A stretch of 64,000 bases of DNA from Escherichia phage vB_EcoP_EP32B. Location: sequence record OR544955. The stretch is one strand, 5' to 3'. Position numbers and translations under genes: made by a program. This document shows positions 3,568-62,326 of this stretch, piece after piece. The notes beneath the pieces were generated by a model. It did no database searches. It worked only from the letters and a program-made list of their open reading frames with translations, and was not told the origin of the DNA. The first letter of the stretch is position 1. Every line of letters starts with the position of its first letter.

Positions 3568-5301
3568 TTACCCAATATCAATACGAGATCCGTCAACAGT
3601 GTATTGTCCTGAAGCTACTGAGCTCATTGTAGACATTGTTTCGGCCCAATCCCCGGCAACAGTCATATCAACATTACCATTAACAGTCCATTTAACGTTT
3701 CCGTTGACGGTGTAATCATGATTCCCTTCGACCTGAGTTTTAGCATCACCTTTAACAAGAATATCTGCATTTCCGTCAACAACTATTTTGATATTACCCT
3801 TAACGTAAAGAGTTCCATCGCCTTCAACAGTTTTAGATTGGTTACCACGAATAAAGATTGTGTCATTGCCGTCTATTTGATGGAGGCGGTCTGCCATGTT
3901 ATAATATATTTCATTAGCACCAACGTTAACAAGCTTATCGCCAGAAATCAAGAAGTTCCCATCACCATTAGTGATGTCAAAAAGGTCTTCTACAGTTTTA
4001 CGAGTACGACGCCCAGATGGAGAAACTTCCTCATATGACCCTGTTGGATGAACTAAACGATAACGTTCATTACCTGGAGTGTCATCAAATTCTTGGATAT
4101 GACCGCTTTCTGTTTCCATAGCATGAACGTATGGATACTCACCACGATAACTTGATTCCGGTTCTTTAAAAAGGATGCGTGAATCTAATGGAACAGGAGG
4201 ACCAGCCGGGTCTTCTGAATCGGTATTTCTAGTAACTAAATCGGCACCAACTCCTGGTGAAGGCGGTGTTTTAACAGGAACACCGTATGATTCCATGTTA
4301 CCGGTTAAAATAATTGTTGTTACACGTGAAGCGCGTCCTTTAGTCTGTTGGAACCATAATGAATCGCGCCCAGATTTGTATGCAGTTTTCCAATCACCTT
4401 CGGCCATTGCTTTAAGCATAGTATTGAATTTTGCTACACCACCAACGCCCATTTGGAAGCACATGTTTTCTAATGCCATTTGGCGAGATCTGTTCATTTT
4501 AGCATAAACAGGACCTACTTTAGAATTAGAACGAATGTCTTTCTGCATCTTAGCAAGGTCCTTCTCAAATAACGCTGTTGCTTCTTCTAATGTAATAGTT
4601 CCCGGATTTCCTGTTACTTCACGCCCTACTTGATCAGATAACAATTTATTAATTCGAGACATATCTCGGGTCTTTTCCATTACGATAAGGTGTCCAATAC
4701 CTACGGTAGGATATCCGAGATGGTCCCAATACACTTTATCACGAAGACCTTCGTCACGACGTAACATTTCTGTTATTGTAAAATTAGGGTCGTCATCTTC
4801 TGGAATATTTGCTAAATCTGTATCGTCTGGGTTTATACCATAATCTAAGTTGTTATCTTGAATTACGTTAGAGTTCGAATAATAACCAGCTTCACCACCT
4901 TGGTTTAATACGTTCGTATCATTACCTAAACGTCGCGGATACTGACCTGTCGGGTCTGAAAAACCTTCAAGTCTATTAGGCTTTTCACGTACAATTCCGC
5001 CATACGTACCAAGTACAATCCCGTTTGTTTTCCATTTGTCTAAGAAATGACCATATACTCGAGTTCCTTCAACAGGACCTGTAACAGAACCACCAATACC
5101 TGACATTGATGCAGACGTAATAGGTTGAATAACAGTCATCCATGGAAGTTTTTCTGTAGGAATACCTTGTACATCACCTTGTGCTCTCTGTGCCGGATGA
5201 AGTCCAACTACTCGCACTCGAACTCGCCCTTGTTTTAATGGGTCCATTCTGTCCTCGACAACACCCACGAACCAATTAAGGCTACTACTAATCATTTCCA
5301 T
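3568..5301 (-). CDS. 5: baseplate hub subunit and tail lysozyme gp5
   Basis: 577 aa; N-terminus [33 protein letters not shown], central lysozyme-like region, C-terminal VxGxxxxx beta-helix repeats. Confidence 0.95.
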   Translation of the reverse strand: MEMISSSLNWFVGVVEDRMDPLKQGRVRVRVVGLHPAQRAQGDVQGIPTEKLPWMTVIQPITSASMSGIGGSVTGPVEGTRVYGHFLDKWKTNGIVLGTYGGIVREKPNRLEGFSDPTGQYPRRLGNDTNVLNQGGEAGYYSNSNVIQDNNLDYGINPDDTDLANIPEDDDPNFTITEMLRRDEGLRDKVYWDHLGYPTVGIGHLIVMEKTRDMSRINKLLSDQVGREVTGNPGTITLEEATALFEKDLAKMQKDIRSNSKVGPVYAKMNRSRQMALENMCFQMGVGGVAKFNTMLKAMAEGDWKTAYKSGRDSLWFQQTKGRASRVTTIILTGNMESYGVPVKTPPSPGVGADLVTRNTDSEDPAGPPVPLDSRILFKEPESSYRGEYPYVHAMETESGHIQEFDDTPGNERYRLVHPTGSYEEVSPSGRRTRKTVEDLFDITNGDGNFLISGDKLVNVGANEIYYNMADRLHQIDGNDTIFIRGNQSKTVEGDGTLYVKGNIKIVVDGNADILVKGDAKTQVEGNHDYTVNGNVKWTVNGNVDMTVAGDWAETMSTMSSVASGQYTVDGSRIDIG

Positions 5302-5876
5302 TATGCAATCTCCATCTCACGAATCAAATCAGTAATAAACGAGTTTATATCTTCTTTTGCAACAATTTTTATTTTACGAAGTTTTTCATTATCTAATACT
5401 GCCGCTTCGTAAGTATCTACTGCAGCTAAAGGTCCTTTATATTGCGGATACTTACGAGCTTCATCACCTTTATCGTACCACACTAAAGGCTCGTCCGGAT
5501 ATGAAACTAAATTGTAAAATTTCTCACGATTTTCATTGATATGATAAAGAACTTGGTCTCCACCGGCATTAGCATATTTCTGAATAGAAGCTTGATACGC
5601 TGCTTCCTGAGATGTAATCCAACCATAATACGGGTCGTAGTTATCGTTACACATCAAAAGAACCCAGTATAATTGAGGGTTGCCATAAATTATGTTTGCT
5701 AGTTCTTCAGGACGCGGAGAGCCTTTAATATAATAAGAACGTAATCTATAATTGGCAGCAACACGCTTAAAGTACTCTTTATAGTTACGAAATATGTCTG
5801 TCATAGGAATAGTAGGTGCATTCTTATTAACTGTTTTAGCACTATATCCTATTGGGTCGAAGAATGTAAATAACAA
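5301..5876 (-). CDS. 53: baseplate wedge protein gp53
   Basis: 191 aa, [33 protein letters not shown], matches recalled T4 gp53; upstream of gene 5. Confidence 0.9.
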
Positions 5877-5903
5877 GATAGTCTCCTTCCAATATGAAAT
5901 TGG

Positions 5904-5911
5904 TATAAATA
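5904..5911 (+). promoter_or_regulatory. T4-type late promoter TATAAATA upstream of gene 4/2 ORF
   Basis: exact TATAAATA about 27 bp before ATG 5938, followed by AGGAGG. Confidence 0.5.
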
Positions 5912-5918
5912 ATAATAC

Positions 5919-5926
5919 TATTTATA
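5919..5926 (-). promoter_or_regulatory. T4-type late promoter TATAAATA (minus strand) upstream of gene 53
   Basis: plus-strand TATTTATA reads TATAAATA on minus strand, about 43 bp upstream of gp53 start; divergent arrangement with the gene 4 promoter. Confidence 0.45.
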
Positions 5927-5937
5927 AGGAGGACAAC

Positions 5938-7134
5938 ATGGCCTACTCTGGTAAATGGGTCCCAAAAAATTTAAAAAAATACCGTGGAGACCATACCAAA
6001 ATAACGTATCGTTCAAACTGGGAAAAATTCTTTTTCGAATGGTTAGATAAAAATCCAGAAATTATTGCATGGGGTAGTGAAACAGCAGTAATTCCATATT
6101 TTTGTAATGCTGAAGGTAAAAAACGTCGATACTATATGGACATATGGATGAAAGATGCATCAGGTCAAGAGTTCTTTGTAGAAATAAAACCAAAGAAAGA
6201 AACTCAACCACCTATTAAGCCTGCAAATCTTACTACCGCAGCAAAGAAACGTTATATGAATGAAATATATACCTGGTCTGTGAACTGTGACAAATGGAAA
6301 GCTGCCTCAGCTATGAGCATATTCCAAATTATATCTGAAGGCGTACAAGCCCCTAAGATTGCTCAGTCTATGAATGAAAGAAAATGGATTGAGATAGGAT
6401 TAGAATACAAGAAAGCTAAAGAGAAAGGAATCACTGCAAAAGCATTTGCAGAATCAAAAGGAATAAAATACTCGTCGTTTACATCTGCAATGTCTAGATA
6501 TGCATCATCTATTAAGACCGCACAGAAAATTGAAACGCTTGAATCTAAACCTAAAAATAAACTCAATAAGCAAGAACGTCAACTTCTGATGATAAACTCG
6601 TTTCGCAGTTCAATACGAGAAAAGATTAGAAATGAAGGCGCAGCAGTAAACAACAAATCATCTAAGTGGTTTGTTGAAACAATTAAGAAAAGTGTAAAAG
6701 GTCATAAAGTAGTCAAGCCTACGCCAGGCAAAATTTATACTTACGTGTATGATGCTAAACATAAAGATACTCTGCCGTATTGGGACAGATATCCTTTGAT
6801 TATTTATTTAGGATTAGGTAAACATAATTTGATGTATGGATTAAACTTGCACTATATCCCACCTAAAGCACGACAACAGTTTCTTGAAGAATTGCTGAAG
6901 CAATATGCTAGCACAACTACTATTACTAATAACACAAAGTTGAAGATAGACTGGAGCAAGGTGAAAGGATTTCAAGGTGCTGACAAAATGATTAAAGCAT
7001 ACCTGCCTGGCCACATTAGAGGAACAATAACAGAAATAGCTCCTAAAGACTGGGCTAACATAATCATGTTACCTACTCAGCAGTTTATGTCAAAAGGAAA
7101 ACGTTTCTCTGCGAATACTGTTTGGAAATCTTAA
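5938..7134 (+). CDS. single 398-codon ORF combining a head completion (gp4-like) N-terminal region and a DNA end protector (gp2-like) C-terminal region
   Basis: ATG 5938 preceded by AGGAGG; [19 protein letters not shown]...; no in-frame stop until 7134; total length close to T4 gp4 (150 aa) plus gp2 (274 aa); internal Met at codon 126 (MSIFQII) leaves 273 codons. Confidence 0.55.
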
Positions 7135-7236
7135 TTCTATTCTCTTCCGTTCGTCTGATATTCTGTTGAACCGGATTAATGGAAGAGACCTAAAACCATT
7201 ATACTGTATTTTTATTAAAGCGTTTTTGAGGTGCTT

Positions 7237-10772: not shown

Positions 10773-11029
10773 GAATTATGTGTTATTATTAATTCATACC
10801 CTCTATTACCAAAGGTGCTCTAAAGTGCCTTTCATAATAGAAAGTTATTTAGGCCCTGTAGCTCAATGGTGCAGTAGCTGCTCTGGAAAACCTGTTCCAA
10901 ATTGCAACAGAAGAACGCGAAGAAGTTACATTATGGATTGAAGATAACGCAGGTCTGAATCTCCAGGACGCGATCTCATTATCCCACAATAGTATCACTG
11001 TTCAAGGCTGGGTATCATCTAGTTATTCT

Positions 11030-12971: not shown

Positions 12972-13566
12972 ATGAATAGTTCTAAAGTGTTTAATAGTCA
13001 AGCTCGTGCAGTAGGTGGTTTTGCTCATGCGATTAAAAATGACCAGATTAAAAACGAGCCTATGTTCTTTTGTATTTGATTCACGAGTCCACATGCTGAT
13101 GCCTGGTTGGTATCCTGCTATCCCAGGTTATCACCATGATGACGTACCACGCCCGGATATTCCGGTTGGTCAACATTTTATTACTGCAGGACAACCTGAC
13201 TATGACAATCCTCGCTATTTGTCTGAACATATTCTTGGTCTTGTTAACGCTGATGTGTGTCCTACTCATTTTGCAACAGGAACTGCGGAGTTCAGTCAGA
13301 TTCCTGATGGCGAACTTATCTATCGCCAGTGGCACAAAGAAGTCCTCGAAAAAATCGAAAAAGGCGAACTAGAGAAATGGGAAGCTCCAGACCGTACTCT
13401 TCTTCAGTTTGATTGGCAAACATGGCACACTGGTTCTCGTGCAATTAGTAATGGATGGCGTTGGTTCGGACGTGTATCTCGTAATACAGACCGAGTTAAA
13501 AAGATTACCAATGAAATTCGCGTCAATGCCCAAGTTTATCTGGAATTCCCTATGGAAGGCTGGTAA
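12972..13566 (+). pseudogene. hypothetical gene apparently split by a frameshift
   Basis: ATG 12972 with GAGGAAAA Shine-Dalgarno opens a 34-codon ORF that stops about 13076; the 183-codon ORF 13015..13566 continues in the +1 frame across A5 runs. Confidence 0.4.
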
Positions 13567-16068: not shown

Positions 16069-16590
16069 ATGAGAACATTTTTAACTGGACCTTATCTATC
16101 CCTGATGAATGCTTTTACACACCATTCTGATGCTAGAGTAGAAGAAATTTGTAAGAACGGTTATGTCCCACCATTTGAAGACGTACTCAAGCAGTACTGT
16201 ACACTTCGTTTAGACGGTGGCAGACAATCCGGTAAATCAATTGCTGTGACTAACTTTGCTGCTAATTGGCTGTATGATGGCGGAACAGTTATTGTTCTTT
16301 CTAATACTTCAGCTTATGCTAAAATTTCTGCTGGTAACATTGAAAAAGAATTTTCTCGATATTCTAGCGATGATATTCGATTCCGTTTATTTACTGATTC
16401 TGTTCGTAGTTTTATTGGCAATGAAGGTTCTAAATTCCGTGGATTAACGCTTTCTCGTATTCTGTATATAATTGACGAGCCTATTAAAGCTCCTGATATG
16501 GATAAGATTTACAATGTCCATATTAAAACAGTTACTGTTGCAAAAGCAAATATTGCATCGGCGGTAATGCTCGTCCTCAATTTTTTGTGA
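16069..16590 (+). CDS. small P-loop NTPase-like protein (173 aa)
   Basis: Walker A GGRQSGKS and Walker B-like LYIIDEP. Confidence 0.6.
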   Translation: MRTFLTGPYLSLMNAFTHHSDARVEEICKNGYVPPFEDVLKQYCTLRLDGGRQSGKSIAVTNFAANWLYDGGTVIVLSNTSAYAKISAGNIEKEFSRYSSDDIRFRLFTDSVRSFIGNEGSKFRGLTLSRILYIIDEPIKAPDMDKIYNVHIKTVTVAKANIASAVMLVLNFL

Positions 16591-17502: not shown

Positions 17503-17890
17503 AGACATCAAAGGCTATAAGCCGCATACCGACGATAAAATCGGTAAAGTGAACGCTATTAAAGATGCAGAAGTTCGAGGAAAAATACTAATGGCTCAAA
17601 TCCTATCAGGCTTTGGAACTCATTATGAAGCATCTAGACGCATAACTGAAAGCAATCCTTTTGGCCTTGTTCCGAAGCACAAGAAAATTCAAAGCCTTGA
17701 TGACTTTGAGAACCGCCTATGGGCCCTCTTTAATGAGTACAAGGCATATCTGAAAGAAGACGCTGACGATTGTCTTGAAGAAGATGAGATTGCGTATTAC
17801 GAACAACGCCTTGAACAGCTCAAGAACTTCCATCAGGTTCGTGACGAAGTATCTAAAGCAGTTAAAAAGTTAATTCCTTTCAAAGAGTAG
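17492..17890 (+). CDS. hypothetical protein (132 aa)
   Basis: start at [12 protein letters not shown] overlapping upstream stop (ATGTCGATTGA); frame of track ORF 17324..17890. Confidence 0.5.
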
Positions 17891-19760: not shown

Positions 19761-19969
19761 ATATACATTATCCACATCCATATGACCCAAAGAATAAGGC
19801 AGTAATTATTCGTCAATGGGAACGCATTTGCCGTACTAAATGCCCAATTAATAGTCCACATGATGTAGATAAAGACTATATTGGAACATTCGTTGAATAT
19901 ACCTTTATTGATAAGAAAGGTCGTAAACAACATGTAGAAGAATATTGCTTAAAGGTTACATGGTTATGA
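19757..19969 (+). CDS. hypothetical protein (70 aa)
   Basis: ORF 19742..19969, start at MNIHYPHPYD. Confidence 0.45.
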   Translation: MNIHYPHPYDPKNKAVIIRQWERICRTKCPINSPHDVDKDYIGTFVEYTFIDKKGRKQHVEEYCLKVTWL

Positions 19970-20496
19970 GTCTTACTGCCGCCCATAACTATAAAGAACG
20001 TGGCATGGGTGTATTAGTTCTTAAACCGGCTATTGATACTCGCGATTCAAAAGGTGAAATAGTCTCTCGTATTGGTATTCGTCAGGACGCCAATATAATT
20101 ACAAAAGACATGGATATCTTTGAATTCTATAAATGGGCTGCAGCACAAAAGGATATTCATTGTGTATTTGTTGACGAAGCTCAGTTCTTAACTACTGAAA
20201 AGGTGTATCAACTTAGTCGTATTGTTGACGTATACAATGTGCCGGTAATGGCATATGGACTACGAACAGATTTTAAAGGTAATCTATTTGAAGGTTCTCA
20301 AGCATTAATGGCTATTGCCGATAAGCTTGTTGAACTTAAAGGTGTCTGTCATTGCGGTAAAAAGGCCACAATGGTAGCTAGAGTCACGGAAGACGGACTT
20401 CCAATTACAGATGGCAGTCAAATTGAAATTGGTGATACTGATAGATATGTGTCATTATGCCGGAAGCATTGGAATGATTTGACAGGGTTGTTATAA
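19960..20496 (+). CDS. tk: thymidine kinase homolog lacking the N-terminal P-loop (probable remnant)
   Basis: MVMSLTAAHNYKERGMGVLVLKPAIDTRD... aligns with TK1-family Tk from just after the GKS Walker A; in-frame stop 19924-19926 upstream. Confidence 0.7.
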   Translation: MVMSLTAAHNYKERGMGVLVLKPAIDTRDSKGEIVSRIGIRQDANIITKDMDIFEFYKWAAAQKDIHCVFVDEAQFLTTEKVYQLSRIVDVYNVPVMAYGLRTDFKGNLFEGSQALMAIADKLVELKGVCHCGKKATMVARVTEDGLPITDGSQIEIGDTDRYVSLCRKHWNDLTGLL

Positions 20497-34868: not shown

Positions 34869-35092
34869 TTAGTTTAGATTCAAAGAAAGTTGTTCTAACC
34901 CTTAAAGTTAATGCGATTTGCATGTTGAAATTGCTAATGGCGTTCGTACTTATCAAGCAAATAAAACTCATTGGGATTATATCCCGATGTTGACGCTTAC
35001 TCAGCGTTTAGAATCAATCGGTCTTAAAGACCTTTCAGTAAGTGAAGTGAATTTTATCAAACGCGTTGTATCAATCAACCTCTGAGGTACTT

Positions 35093-35254
35093 ATGGGTAA
35101 AACGTATCGTCGTAAAGATTTGAAAGTTCGCGATTATGACTATTTTGGTAAACGTAAAGCTCCTGACGGTGTTAGCCACAAAGACATGGTTGAAAACATA
35201 TTCCGCTCTGATAAATGGAAGCGTATGAAAGGCGTTGATTCTGAAGTCAAATGA
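35093..35254 (+). CDS. hypothetical basic protein (53 aa)
   Basis: start MGKTYRRKDL after GAGGTA. Confidence 0.45.
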   Translation: MGKTYRRKDLKVRDYDYFGKRKAPDGVSHKDMVENIFRSDKWKRMKGVDSEVK

Positions 35255-35786: not shown

Positions 35787-36026
35787 ATGGCCCAAGAATT
35801 AGATTTTATCAAATTCAAAAAACACCTCGACGTTAAAATTGGGGATTCAATTGTTAGGATTGAGTATGACATTTTAACAGATGCTATTACTGTTAGTTGT
35901 GATGGAAATAGTTTCAGCTTCGATACAACCGAAAACAAATACCCAATATATAAAGGTATCTTTGATATGGGTGTCGATATCAGCCCACGCGATACAAATT
36001 ACTTGCTTTTCATGCTTAAAAAATAG
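35787..36026 (+). CDS. hypothetical protein (79 aa)
   Basis: ORF with GAGGAAAAT Shine-Dalgarno. Confidence 0.5.
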   Translation: MAQELDFIKFKKHLDVKIGDSIVRIEYDILTDAITVSCDGNSFSFDTTENKYPIYKGIFDMGVDISPRDTNYLLFMLKK

Positions 36027-36055
36027 TGTACAGACTCTTGAGAGCAGAGTATAAT
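36027..36055 (+). promoter_or_regulatory. early promoter
   Basis: GTGTAC -35 variant and GAGTATAATG -10. Confidence 0.4.
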
Positions 36056-39807: not shown

Positions 39808-40015
39808 TTATGAAATCCATCGTCATGAATTTAGTATTGGTGACGGTTATATTGGTATAGTTTTATGAGGAGACAACTCCTCGTTTCTTTGGAACCATGT
39901 ATGTTACTTGTGAGTACGCACCAGGTGTTGTTATGTATGCAGAACTAGATGAATATTTTGCTGATAGAGATGACATGTTAAAATATGTAGAGGACTTCAT
40001 TCGAAGAGAATACAT

Positions 40016-41578
40016 ATGAAATCATTTAAATTAAATCGTGTTCGTTATCAAAACATCATGTCAGTAGGTGGGAATCCTATTGATATCCAATTAGATAAAG
40101 TCCAAAAGACATTAATCACTGGTAAAAATGGCGGTGGTAAATCTACGATGTTAGAAGCCATTACTTTCGGACTTTTCGGTAAACCATTTCGTGATGTTAA
40201 GAAAGGACAAATCATTAATAGCATGAACAAGAAAGAGCTCTTAGTTGAGCTTTGGATGGAATTCGATGATAAAAAATACTTCATTAAACGTGGCCAAAAG
40301 CCCAATATTTTCGAAATCTCCGTTGACGGTGTTCGTCTCGATGAATCTGCCAGCAGTCGTGACTTCCAAGAAGAATTTGAACGTAGCATCGGAATGTCAT
40401 ACGCGTCTTTTAAACAAATCGTTGTGCTTGGGACGGCAGGGTATACCCCTTTCATGGCTCTTAGCACCCCTGCTCGTAGAAAGCTTGTTGAAGACTTATT
40501 AGAAGTTGGCACACTCGCTGAAATGGATAAAATCAATAAGTCTCAAGTTCGCGAACTTAATTCTCAGGGACAAGTTCTTGATGCCAAGAAAGATGGTATT
40601 ATCCAACAAATTAAGATTTATAACGAGAATATCGAACGTCAAAAGAAATTATCTGGTGATAATGTAGCGCGTCTACAGAATATGTATGACGACCTAGCCA
40701 AAGAAGCTCGGTCATTAAAAGCAGAAATCGAAGAAGCTAATGAGCGACTACTTAATATCGTTCTTGATGAAGACCCTACTGAGGCATTCAACAAGATAGG
40801 ACAAGAAGCATTCTTGATTAAATCTAAAATTGACTCATATAACAAAGTTATTAAGATGTATCATGATGGCGGTACATGTCCTACTTGTGCATCACAGTTG
40901 CACCAGGGTGACCCTATTGTCTCTAAGATTACCGATAAGCTTCATGAATGTAATCACTCATTCGAGCAACTTACATGTCACAGAGATAATCTGAGTGTCC
41001 TAGTGGACGAATATAGAGCTAATGTCAAGACTAAACAGGACCTTGCATCTGATATTCGTACCAAGAAACAAGCAATGATTGCCACTATTGATAAAGCTAA
41101 GAAAGTTAAAGCTGCAATAGAACAAGCCTCAGCAGAATTTATCGACCATGCCGATGAGATAGCTTTGCTTCAAAAAGAACTTGATAAAATCATTAAAACA
41201 AAATCGGATATCGTTCTTGAAAAATACCATCGTGGTATTATCACAGATATGTTAAAAGATTCTGGTATTAAAGGTGCTATCATTAAAAAATATGTGCCTC
41301 TGTTCAACAAGCAGATTAACCATTATCTTAAAATCATGGAAGCTGATTACGTGTTTTCTATTGACGAAGAATTCAATGAATCTATAAAATCACGTGGCCG
41401 TGAAGAGTTCAGTTATGCTTCATTTAGTCAAGGCGAAAAAGCGCGTATCGATATCGCATTGTTGTTTACATGGCGAGATATTGCTGAAAAGGTCTCTGGT
41501 GTTAAAATCAACACAACGTGTTCATTATTTCTCACAGAGACCATGACCCACAAGCTTATGGACAACATCTTCAAATGA
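40016..41578 (+). CDS. 46: recombination ATPase subunit gp46 (Rad50/SbcC-like)
   Basis: 520 aa; Walker A GKNGGGKST, long coiled-coil, CPTC zinc hook. Confidence 0.9.
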   Translation: MKSFKLNRVRYQNIMSVGGNPIDIQLDKVQKTLITGKNGGGKSTMLEAITFGLFGKPFRDVKKGQIINSMNKKELLVELWMEFDDKKYFIKRGQKPNIFEISVDGVRLDESASSRDFQEEFERSIGMSYASFKQIVVLGTAGYTPFMALSTPARRKLVEDLLEVGTLAEMDKINKSQVRELNSQGQVLDAKKDGIIQQIKIYNENIERQKKLSGDNVARLQNMYDDLAKEARSLKAEIEEANERLLNIVLDEDPTEAFNKIGQEAFLIKSKIDSYNKVIKMYHDGGTCPTCASQLHQGDPIVSKITDKLHECNHSFEQLTCHRDNLSVLVDEYRANVKTKQDLASDIRTKKQAMIATIDKAKKVKAAIEQASAEFIDHADEIALLQKELDKIIKTKSDIVLEKYHRGIITDMLKDSGIKGAIIKKYVPLFNKQINHYLKIMEADYVFSIDEEFNESIKSRGREEFSYASFSQGEKARIDIALLFTWRDIAEKVSGVKINTTCSLFLTETMTHKLMDNIFK

Positions 41579-45072: not shown

Positions 45073-47757
45073 ATGAAAGAATTTTACTTAACGGTTGAAC
45101 AGATTGGTGATTCAATTTTTGAACGTTACATCGATTCTAATGGCCGTGAACGTACTCGTGAAGTAGAATATAAACCATCACTGTTTGCTCATTGTCCAGA
45201 AAGTCAGGCTACGAAATATTTCGATATCTACGGTAAGCCGTGTACTCGTAAGTTGTTCGCTAATATGCGTGATGCCTCCCAATGGATTAAACGTATGGAA
45301 GATATCGGACTTGAAGCACTTGGCATGGACGATTTCAAATTGGCGTATTTGTCTGACACTTATAACTATGAAATCAAATACGACCATACAAAAATTCGTG
45401 TGGCTAACTTCGACATCGAAGTAACATCTCCGGACGGGTTCCCTGAGCCGTCACAAGCAAAACATCCGATTGATGCTATCACCCATTATGACTCAATTGA
45501 CGACAGGTTCTACGTATTTGATCTATTGAATTCTCCATATGGTAATGTAGAAGAATGGTCTATCGAAATTGCAGCTAAGCTTCAAGAACAAGGTGGTGAT
45601 GAAGTTCCATCCGAAATTATCGATAAAATCATTTATATGCCGTTCGATAACGAAAAAGAATTGTTGATGGAATATCTCAACTTCTGGCAACAGAAAACTC
45701 CTGTCATTTTGACTGGATGGAACGTTGAGTCATTTGATATTCCATATGTGTATAACCGAATCAAGAATATTTTTGGCGAATCTACTGCGAAACGTTTATC
45801 ACCACATCGTAAAACTCGTGTTAAAGTTATCGAAAACATGTATGGTTCTCGTGAAATCATTACATTGTTCGGTATCTCTGTTCTTGATTATATTGACCTT
45901 TACAAAAAATTCTCTTTTACCAATCAACCGTCGTATTCTCTGGATTACATTTCAGAATTTGAATTGAACGTTGGTAAACTGAAATACGACGGTCCTATTT
46001 CTAAACTTCGTTATAACATCATCGACGTATATCGTGTATTGCAAATTGATGCTAAACGCCAGTTCATTAACTTGAGTTTGGACATGGGTTATTATGCTAA
46101 GATACAGATTCAATCTGTGTTTAGCCCAATTAAAACATGGGATGCTATTATTTTTAATAGCCTTAAAGAACAAAACAAGGTGATTCCACAAGGTCGTTCG
46201 CATCCAGTTCAACCTTACCCGGGTGCTTTTGTTAAGGAACCTATTCCAAATCGATACAAATATGTAATGAGTTTCGACCTTACATCTCTGTATCCAAGTA
46301 TTATTCGCCAAGTGAATATTAGCCCGGAAACAATAGCAGGAACGTTTAAAGTAGCTCCACTGCATGATTATATTAACGCAATCGCTGAACGTCCTTCAGA
46401 TGTGTACAGTTGCTCTCCTAACGGCATGATGTATTATAAAGACCGTGACGGTGTTGTTCCAACTGAAATCACTAAGGTCTTTAATCAACGTAAAGAACAT
46501 AAAGGTTATATGCTTGCAGCTCAACGTAATGGTGAAATAATTAAAGAGGCATTGCATAATCCTAATCTTTCTGTTGACGAACCATTAGATGTTGATTATC
46601 GTTTCGACTTCAGCGATGAGATTAAAGAAAAGATTAAAAAGTTGTCTGCTAAATCTCTTAATGAAATGTTGTTTAGAGCTCAACGTACTGAAGTTGCAGG
46701 TATGACTGCACAGATTAACCGTAAATTGCTTATCAACTCACTTTATGGTGCACTTGGAAACGTTTGGTTCCGTTATTATGATTTGCGTAATGCTACTGCA
46801 ATCACAACATTCGGACAAATGGCTTTACAGTGGATTGAACGTAAAGTTAATGAATATCTGAATGAAGTTTGCGGTACAGAAGGTGAAGCTTTCGTTCTTT
46901 ATGGTGATACAGACTCTATTTACGTATCTGCTGATAAAATTATCGATAAGGTTGGTGAATCTAAATTCCGTGATACCAACCATTGGGTAGACTTCTTAGA
47001 TAAGTTCGCTCGTGAACGTATGGAACCTGCTATTGATAGAGGTTTCCGTGAAATGTGCGAATACATGAATAATAAGCAACATTTGATGTTCATGGACCGA
47101 GAAGCTATCGCTGGTCCTCCGCTCGGTTCTAAAGGTATTGGTGGATTTTGGACTGGTAAGAAACGTTATGCATTAAACGTGTGGGATATGGAAGGTACTC
47201 GTTACGCTGAGCCTAAACTCAAAATCATGGGTCTAGAGACTCAGAAATCTTCGACACCTAAAGCAGTACAGAAAGCTCTTAAAGAATGTATTCGTCGTAT
47301 GCTTCAAGAAGGTGAAGAATCATTACAAGAATATTTTAAAGAGTTTGAAAAAGAATTCCGTCAATTGAATTATATTAGCATCGCGTCGGTATCTTCTGCG
47401 AATAACATTGCTAAATATGATGTCGGTGGATTCCCTGGCCCCAAATGTCCGTTCCATATTCGTGGAATTCTGACATATAACCGAGCTATCAAAGGTAATA
47501 TCGATGCACCGCAAGTTGTAGAAGGTGAAAAAGTATATGTTCTGCCTTTACGTGAAGGAAACCCATTCGGTGATAAATGTATCGCATGGCCTTCTGGTAC
47601 GGAAATCACTGATTTAATCAAAGATGATGTACTTCATTGGATGGACTACACGGTTCTCCTTGAGAAGACATTTATTAAACCACTTGAAGGATTCACATCA
47701 GCAGCTAAACTCGATTACGAGAAGAAAGCATCTCTGTTCGATATGTTTGATTTTTGA
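45073..47757 (+). CDS. 43: DNA polymerase gp43 (family B)
   Basis: 894 aa; exonuclease motif FDIEV, polymerase motifs DxxSLYPS and YGDTDS. Confidence 0.95.
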   Translation: MKEFYLTVEQIGDSIFERYIDSNGRERTREVEYKPSLFAHCPESQATKYFDIYGKPCTRKLFANMRDASQWIKRMEDIGLEALGMDDFKLAYLSDTYNYEIKYDHTKIRVANFDIEVTSPDGFPEPSQAKHPIDAITHYDSIDDRFYVFDLLNSPYGNVEEWSIEIAAKLQEQGGDEVPSEIIDKIIYMPFDNEKELLMEYLNFWQQKTPVILTGWNVESFDIPYVYNRIKNIFGESTAKRLSPHRKTRVKVIENMYGSREIITLFGISVLDYIDLYKKFSFTNQPSYSLDYISEFELNVGKLKYDGPISKLRYNIIDVYRVLQIDAKRQFINLSLDMGYYAKIQIQSVFSPIKTWDAIIFNSLKEQNKVIPQGRSHPVQPYPGAFVKEPIPNRYKYVMSFDLTSLYPSIIRQVNISPETIAGTFKVAPLHDYINAIAERPSDVYSCSPNGMMYYKDRDGVVPTEITKVFNQRKEHKGYMLAAQRNGEIIKEALHNPNLSVDEPLDVDYRFDFSDEIKEKIKKLSAKSLNEMLFRAQRTEVAGMTAQINRKLLINSLYGALGNVWFRYYDLRNATAITTFGQMALQWIERKVNEYLNEVCGTEGEAFVLYGDTDSIYVSADKIIDKVGESKFRDTNHWVDFLDKFARERMEPAIDRGFREMCEYMNNKQHLMFMDREAIAGPPLGSKGIGGFWTGKKRYALNVWDMEGTRYAEPKLKIMGLETQKSSTPKAVQKALKECIRRMLQEGEESLQEYFKEFEKEFRQLNYISIASVSSANNIAKYDVGGFPGPKCPFHIRGILTYNRAIKGNIDAPQVVEGEKVYVLPLREGNPFGDKCIAWPSGTEITDLIKDDVLHWMDYTVLLEKTFIKPLEGFTSAAKLDYEKKASLFDMFDF

Positions 47758-59369: not shown

Positions 59370-59786
59370 ATGATTTATTATATGCACAAAAATGCGCCAT
59401 TTAAATATGGTAAATTTCCTAATGCACAATGTTATAATATAACGCCTAATGAAAATAATAACGGATACCATCTCGGTGTAATTTTTGTAATTGTTAAAGA
59501 TAACGAAATCGTTGCCTGGGCAGATTTTAAAGGTACAACATATGATGTTAATCCTGTGCCTTTCACATATTATAATTTAATGGATTTGGCATATGATTAT
59601 AATTGGTTTAATCATGAAGGATTTGACATCTCTTATTCTAGCTATTCATTATGTCCTATGAGCCGAGCTCACGGTAAAGATGTATCATATCTTTCAATTC
59701 GGAAACGTGTAAACTTCAAACGTAGTACAGAGTATGTTGGTGGACTCTTTGTTAAAGATAATAAAATAACATTAGTTATCCTCTAA
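59370..59786 (+). CDS. hypothetical protein (138 aa)
   Basis: ORF 59361..59786, start MIYYMHKN. Confidence 0.5.
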   Translation: MIYYMHKNAPFKYGKFPNAQCYNITPNENNNGYHLGVIFVIVKDNEIVAWADFKGTTYDVNPVPFTYYNLMDLAYDYNWFNHEGFDISYSSYSLCPMSRAHGKDVSYLSIRKRVNFKRSTEYVGGLFVKDNKITLVIL

Positions 59787-62011: not shown

Positions 62012-62326
62012 ATGGCGCACTTTAATGAATGTTCACAACTTATTTCTGGTGTTGATAAAGCAGAAGAAGCTTATTTTAATGCTCTGATTCACGAAGATAA
62101 AGACCCACTTCAGGTAATGCTTGATATGCAGAAATCTTTACAGGTTCGTCTGGCAAATGACAAGCCTGAACATAACAAACATCCTGATGAATTGGCTACT
62201 GCCGGTGATGTTGTTGATTGGCTGCGTAATCAGAAAGATTATATTGATGATGAATTCCGTGAACTGTTGACTTCACTTGGTGGTATGATTATAAATACAC
62301 CTGTAATTAAACAACAAAGGAGTTAA
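62012..62326 (+). CDS. 56: dCTP pyrophosphatase gp56-like (MazG-type), short form
   Basis: MAHFNECSQLISGVDKAEEAYF...ATAGDVVDWLRNQKDYIDDEFRELLTSLG; 104 aa, shorter than T4 gp56 as recalled. Confidence 0.65.
   Translation: MAHFNECSQLISGVDKAEEAYFNALIHEDKDPLQVMLDMQKSLQVRLANDKPEHNKHPDELATAGDVVDWLRNQKDYIDDEFRELLTSLGGMIINTPVIKQQRS
62290..62297 (+). promoter_or_regulatory. late promoter TATAAATA upstream of soc
   Basis: exact TATAAATA about 32 bp before soc ATG, within the 3-prime end of gene 56. Confidence 0.5.

Follow-up and report, generated by a model that had tools for sequence, protein, structure and literature searches.

The 398-codon gp4–gp2 reading frame in Escherichia phage vB_EcoP_EP32B is probably a by-product of sequence dropout in its record

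The window analyzed here is a 64,000-nt stretch of the genome of Escherichia phage vB_EcoP_EP32B (sequence record OR544955). It belongs to a Mosigvirus, i.e., an RB69-like T-even phage, and shares 97 to 99% identity with many Escherichia and Shigella phages (megablast). The locus of interest lies where two blocks of genes meet: genes 6, 5.4, 5.1, 5, and 53 on the minus strand are followed by genes 4, 2, 3, 1, 57A, and 57B on the plus strand. In a related metagenomic Mosigvirus (ENA ERZ28664131 scaffold_62, positions 4576 to 7205), gene 5 of this neighborhood was called as a 337–amino acid (aa) and a 243-aa piece, followed by an extra 287-aa open reading frame (ORF), which may be a mobile-element or homing-endonuclease insertion.

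In the window, the place of genes 4 and 2 is taken by one ORF on the plus strand (5938 to 7134), comprising 398 codons and a TAA stop at 7132 to 7134, with no stop in between. Direct reading thus bears out the initial annotation, which had described a single uninterrupted frame of this length. The stop-to-stop frame reaches upstream of 5938, and its first ATG, at 5794, would yield a protein of 446 aa; an equivalent upstream start has been chosen in some annotations of related phages. It is at the ATG at 5938, however, that gp4 of T4 and of Mosigvirus starts (MAYSGKW), and this ATG is preceded, 5 nt to its 5′ side, by the Shine-Dalgarno sequence of gene 4 (AAGGAGG; 5926 to 5932, plus strand; direct reading).

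The ORF consists of two recognizable parts. Codons 1 to 125 (5938 to 6312, plus strand) encode gp4, the head completion nuclease with a TnsA-like PD-(D/E)XK fold, from which the C-terminal 24 codons are absent. The gp4-like N terminus noticed earlier is in fact identical to residues 1 to 125 of a Mosigvirus gp4 (MZ234025). Codon 126 is the internal Met that had been picked out as leaving 273 codons, and its ATG can be read at 6313 to 6315. From there to the end (6313 to 7134, plus strand) runs a complete coding sequence (CDS) for gp2, the DNA end protector, with 273 codons and a stop but without a ribosome-binding site of its own. Residues 126 to 398 are 100% identical to a natural 273-aa gp2 (PF26869, Phage_T4_gp2), and an alignment spanning the whole of T4 gp2 gives 77% identity. 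PHROG 429 (“DNA end protector”) matches the gp2 of a near-identical relative, and a search of the gp2 part against a local copy of Pfam returned no match. The open frame therefore did not arise by chance but unites two genuine genes in one frame.

We find that gp4 keeps its catalytic residues and loses the end of its fold. The window ORF matches Pfam PF08722 (TnsA-like endonuclease N-terminal) over residues 39 to 125 (E = 2.1e-15; 57.4 bits against a cutoff of 26.5), covering positions 1 to 71 of the 85 in the profile, where intact gp4 covers positions 1 to 85. The PD-(D/E)XK residues D68, E82, and K84, which are invariant columns in an alignment of 49 sequences, are all present. The absent tail, however, holds five further columns that are invariant among 49 diverse aligned homologs (F134, T138, E139, L142, and G146). 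In the AlphaFold model of an intact gp4 homolog [predicted local distance difference test (pLDDT) score of 95], the best Protein Data Bank fold match of which is TnsA (1t0f and 1f1z), the absent residues form the end of a helix (100 to 129), a strand (132 to 137), and a second helix (139 to 144). The window ORF thus lacks the complete gp4 domain of about 149 to 152 aa, with its C-terminal strand and helix. Nor does gp2 form a cistron of its own here, with a start and a ribosome-binding site directly after gene 4. Searches by sequence for solved structures of gp4 or gp2 found none. Morphogenesis is reported to require the nuclease activity of gp4 (Benler et al. 2020 Virology 543:7, cited in PMC7824862), and genes 2 and 4 belong to the core gene set of T4-like phages (PMC2993671).

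There is also a likeness between the two sides of the junction. The gp2 N terminus, S-IFQIISEG (6313 to 6336), resembles the lost gp4 strand, IKFRVLTEDG (residues 130 to 139 in relatives), and MAFFT aligns the two. This resemblance is probably a coincidence.

Alignment with MZ234025 shows that the window is without exactly 77 nt after position 6312 (6312 to 6313, plus strand), the breakpoint being ambiguous by 1 nt owing to a shared T. The absent 77 nt comprise gp4 codons 126 to 149 (VAEKRNIKFRVLTEDGLRKLGYKG), the TAA stop, and a TT spacer, and the Shine-Dalgarno sequence of gp2 (AAGGGG) falls within them. Their sequence begins and ends as GTTGCTGAAAAG...GGGGTAATT, and in NC_041863 they occupy record positions 71697 to 71773. 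As a result, gp4 codon 125 is joined directly, and in frame, to the ATG of gp2. The same break at 6312, with the relative longer by 76 to 77 bases, appears against MZ234025, NC_041863, LR027391, MN850622, and OR544954. It also appears against a Logan contig encoding an identical gp2 and against six further ENA, NCBI, or Logan loci encoding an identical gp53.

The nature of this gap narrows the options that had been offered for the joined frame, namely that the genes are fused, that gp2 starts internally, or that an indel has merged two overlapping frames. The indel comes closest, although the overlapping frames do not hold: what is missing is a block of 77 nt. Nor does gp4 end in a second open frame that a one-base correction would restore. 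The alignment shows a clean 77-nt gap relative to relatives instead, which rules out both a one-base frameshift and overlapping frames. Taken at face value, the sequence does show the genes “fused,” but the surrounding pattern of deletion-only gaps points to the record rather than to the phage. Slipped-strand deletions between direct repeats are expected to show microhomology; the ends of this gap share only 1 nt, which rules out that origin.

The 77-nt gap has many counterparts across the window. Measured against two to four relatives, the window has about 22 private deletions, set against one private insertion (3 nt). The smaller deletions are of 2, 4, 4, 12, 14, 24, 24, 27, 28, 35, 77, and 88 nt, and the larger of 92, 94, 133, 160, about 216, at least 286, 298, 446, 594, and at least 4277 nt. 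Alignment with NC_041863 is interrupted by 16 block discontinuities, and the window is the shorter sequence at every one of the 16. The breakpoints recur against LR027391, MN850622, and OR544954. Among themselves, the relatives differ only at a few known variable spots, and there in both directions.

Neither the ends nor the lengths of these gaps bear the marks of a selected or repeat-driven process. Microhomology at the junctions is 0 to 2 nt, except for one junction with 5 nt, approximately what random breakpoints would give. Gap lengths are divisible by three in 6 of 20 cases, and the frame is shifted at most junctions. With so little preference for frame, the gaps have not passed purifying selection. 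Selection or design for in-frame junctions is likewise ruled out, as the frame is kept at only about one-third of them. Composition-driven dropout in GC- or C-rich modified DNA was rejected as well: the absent segments are ordinary, with a GC content of 0.36 to 0.47 and no common motif, the exception being one GC-rich absent piece of 35 nt.

Several of the gaps break genes, some of them essential. An 88-nt gap (41514 to 41515, plus strand) in the Rad50/SbcC-like gene 46 (40016 to 41578) shifts the frame, with the loss of the Walker B motif (LILDEVFDG) and everything downstream. A 594-nt gap (62287 to 62288, plus strand) leaves the gp56-like dCTP pyrophosphatase with only the first 92 of its 173 residues, residues 93 to 173 being lost together with soc.2 and soc.1; close by, a 94-nt gap (62460/62461) truncates soc at residue 45 of 78. 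In gene 43 (45073 to 47757), a private in-frame gap of 27 nt (46018 to 46029) leaves the DNA polymerase without ESNHQRYIS, directly before the YNIID Exo III motif. A 160-nt gap (48093/48094) breaks an arabinose-5-phosphate isomerase–like gene, a member of the cluster linked to arabinosyl-hmC DNA modification in RB69-like phages.

Smaller private gaps shift the frame of vs.8 (4 nt at 16532), 55.5 (2 nt at 35249), 46.1 (14 nt at 39862), and a 216-aa ORF (4 nt at 59770), or truncate a 55.x ORF (28 nt at 34913). None of these five lies in a homopolymer, and all of the affected genes are intact in relatives. The largest gap (at least 4277 nt; 4,925 nt against NC_041863) lies at 10870 to 10871 (plus strand), between a start inside tRNA-Met and an end within a small ORF. 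Both tRNA-Met and tRNA-Arg are lost with it, as are about 15 small genes, and a search of the whole window with ARAGORN found no tRNA genes.

A further gap, of 446 nt at 19972 (19966 to 20496), removes the P-loop of tdk (AAMNAGKSS) along with two small genes. What is left of a small ORF, its first two codons, runs on in frame into tdk at codon 20. We regard this stub–tdk joint as a second false “fusion,” of the same kind as gp4–gp2.

In T4, growth depends wholly or almost wholly on each of genes 4, 46, and 56. Poor growth would be expected of a phage with all of the lesions described above. The study that reported the genome describes phages with clear plaques and burst sizes of up to 392 (PMC11657129), observations that conflict with the lesions in the sequence.

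The same study assigns vB_EcoP_EP32b (OR544955) to Mosigvirus and gives its genome as 156,698 bp long, with 0 tRNAs; identity to an O157 typing phage is 97.87%. The methods list enzymatic fragmentation, NextSeq sequencing (100 Mb of 2x150 reads), and assembly with SPAdes, and they mention no finishing step (PMC11657129). The genome is about 12 kb shorter than those of its relatives. A third genome in the study, of about 130 kb, is given with the remark “no TerL found” (PMC11657129).

The sister record, OR544954 (vB_EcoM_EP32a), has a genome about 97% identical to that of the window. Like the window, EP32a has private gaps inside conserved genes, and three of the gap loci are common to both (window positions 13070, 28076, and 41514). 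At these three, the EP32a gap ends are offset from those of the window by 1 to 11 nt, the offset being 1 nt at gene 46, which is annotated as two CDSs in EP32a. EP32a also has gaps of its own: two stretches of the window (17577 to 17884 and 35809 to 36029) have no full counterpart in it, 306 nt being absent from the first and 219 nt from the second. Unlike the window, it has gp4, gp2, and both tRNAs intact. The offset ends rule out deletions inherited in common. Judged from the two sequences, the gaps at common loci would be independent events at reproducible places; near-equal gaps in the same places of genomes that are about 97% identical look like reproducible data holes, not like inheritance or random deletion. 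Both GenBank records probably need re-assembly.

We conclude that the 398-codon ORF is most likely a by-product of the dropout of 77 nt during assembly or consensus building, and that it probably does not represent a real fused protein. The gap exists, it is unique to the window sequence, and it has company: the private gaps, deletions only, number about 22, and several of them destroy essential functions. Such a setting argues that the fusion is a property of the record rather than of the phage. The pattern (many private gaps, all of them deletions, with no preference for microhomology or frame, and some of them in essential genes) is that of dropout. A technical cause is most likely on these comparative grounds: contigs, or stretches with poor coverage, may have been joined with a loss of sequence and with no gap marker to show it. 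In that case, the real phage has a separate gp4 of 149 aa, followed by TAA-TT and a gp2 of 273 aa with its own Shine-Dalgarno sequence.

Some observations speak against dropout. De novo assembly with SPAdes alone does not silently drop stretches of 2 to 600 nt, and an unreported joining or consensus step must therefore be assumed. The junction is clean, in frame, and within one base of the gp2 ATG, as in a real or engineered fusion. It also spares the gp4 catalytic residues and the whole of gp2.

A rival explanation is a genuine 77-bp deletion, carried by the phage itself or by much of the sequenced stock and giving rise to a gp4(1-125)–gp2 fusion protein. We consider such a deletion unlikely. 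The given sequence does encode exactly this protein, in which D68, E82, and K84 and the full gp2 are kept, and the catalytic core of the gp4 nuclease would be tethered to the DNA-end protector. Free gp2 would then arise only by weak internal initiation at Met126, its Shine-Dalgarno sequence being gone, and gp2 would be present mainly as the fusion. Both gp4 and gp2 are products of adjacent, co-conserved core genes with a proposed action on the packaged DNA end (PMC7824862 and PMC2993671), and the gp2 N terminus (IFQIISEG) loosely mimics the lost gp4 strand (KFRVLTEDG). However, the deletion would remove a conserved core strand and helix of gp4 and truncate its Pfam domain, and it would have arisen with only 1 nt in common between its ends, i.e., without direct-repeat microhomology. 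The sister isolate EP32a has gp4 and gp2 intact. Moreover, about 22 equally unselected gaps would have to be accepted on the same terms. These would inactivate gp46 and gp56, among others, and a phage so damaged is incompatible with the reports of vigorous growth.

The junction itself is unique among all the sequences searched. A 44-nt query centered on the junction, designed such that a match is impossible unless the junction is present, found no match by blastn among 50,697 phage records, a collection that includes OR544954 and not OR544955. In a search with 81 nt around the junction, every record listed matched in two pieces spanning 158 nt. Exact junction patterns were absent from IMG/VR, GTDB genomes, and JGI metagenomes, and E. 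coli genome and plasmid collections held nothing similar to the junction. It is more doubtful still that the deletion is real and that the phage also grows while its gp4 nuclease core is covalently fused to gp2.

Improbable, too, is a chimeric consensus drawn from a mixed Mosigvirus stock or from defective deletion genomes, in which each gap would be real in some molecules and no single viable genome would carry them all. EP32a and EP32b were obtained in one study on one host strain, their identity is about 97%, and they have gap loci in common. In addition, EP32b is named as a podovirus (“P”) though its genome is that of a myovirus-type Mosigvirus, which hints at mixed material. Nonetheless, a consensus would not be dominated by genomes so defective as to have more than 20 deletions, and the offset ends at the common loci fit coverage holes better than inherited deletions.

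A natural, evolutionarily fixed gp4–gp2 fusion, as a new domain architecture in a T4-like lineage, is the least credible reading: it has the open frame itself in its favor and nothing beyond, and the absence of any recurrence in the databases searched effectively rules it out. The fused architecture was found in no independent genome. Searched against 5.8 billion proteins, the fusion protein returned, among the best 120 matches listed, only stand-alone gp2 proteins of 263 to 332 aa that covered at most 69% of the query. The gp4 part, searched against the same 5.8 billion proteins, returned only stand-alone proteins of 109 to 158 aa among the best 120 matches listed. The exact 398-aa protein is not on record, and neither the junction nor the protein appears in a gene-position index. 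Queries with exact proteins of the window turned up no assembly from this strain. The length of gp4 is tightly conserved, at about 149 to 152 aa, and all of the loci shown with an identical neighboring gp53 have separate genes for 149 and 273 aa.

A real fusion would have some modest interest, as an experiment of nature on two head-completion proteins that are poorly understood. It would show that the head-completion nuclease and the DNA-end protector are able to function at the end of the packaged DNA as a single polypeptide. It would also show that gp4 can do without its conserved C-terminal strand or that the similar N terminus of gp2 can stand in for it. With dropout as the preferred explanation, the value of the finding is that of a quality flag: OR544955 and its sister OR544954 contain many silent gaps. 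Such gaps create false fusions (gp4–gp2 and stub–tdk), false pseudogenes (gp46, gp56, and soc), and a false “no tRNA” phenotype. Gapped records can in this way seed spurious calls of “fusion” or “gene loss” in comparative and machine-learning analyses.

The phage itself almost certainly makes gp4 and gp2 as separate proteins, as does every other T4-like phage examined. In Mosigvirus relatives (MZ234025, NC_041863, LR027391, and MN850622), which share 97 to 99% nucleotide identity with the window on both sides of its junction, a gp4 of 149 aa is followed by TAA, TT, and the ATG of a 273-aa gp2, whereas the window is without those 77 nt. The Shine-Dalgarno sequence of gp2 (AAGGGG) lies inside the 3′ end of gp4 in these relatives and is absent from the window. 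In T4, where gp4 is also known as gp50 and gp65, and gp2 as gp64, the two genes are separate, as the initial annotation stated; gene 4 is 453 nt long and gene 2 is 825 nt long. Residues 1 to 125 of the window ORF match T4 gp4 closely, and the ORF is 81% identical to T4 gp4 over 151 aligned residues, a figure that includes the mismatched part past residue 125. The T4 gene order, 53 followed by 4, 2, 3, 1, 57A, and 57B, is also that of the window. Genes 4 and 2 of T4 share one base (record position 76885), while in the window the end of gp4, its stop, and the spacer are absent.
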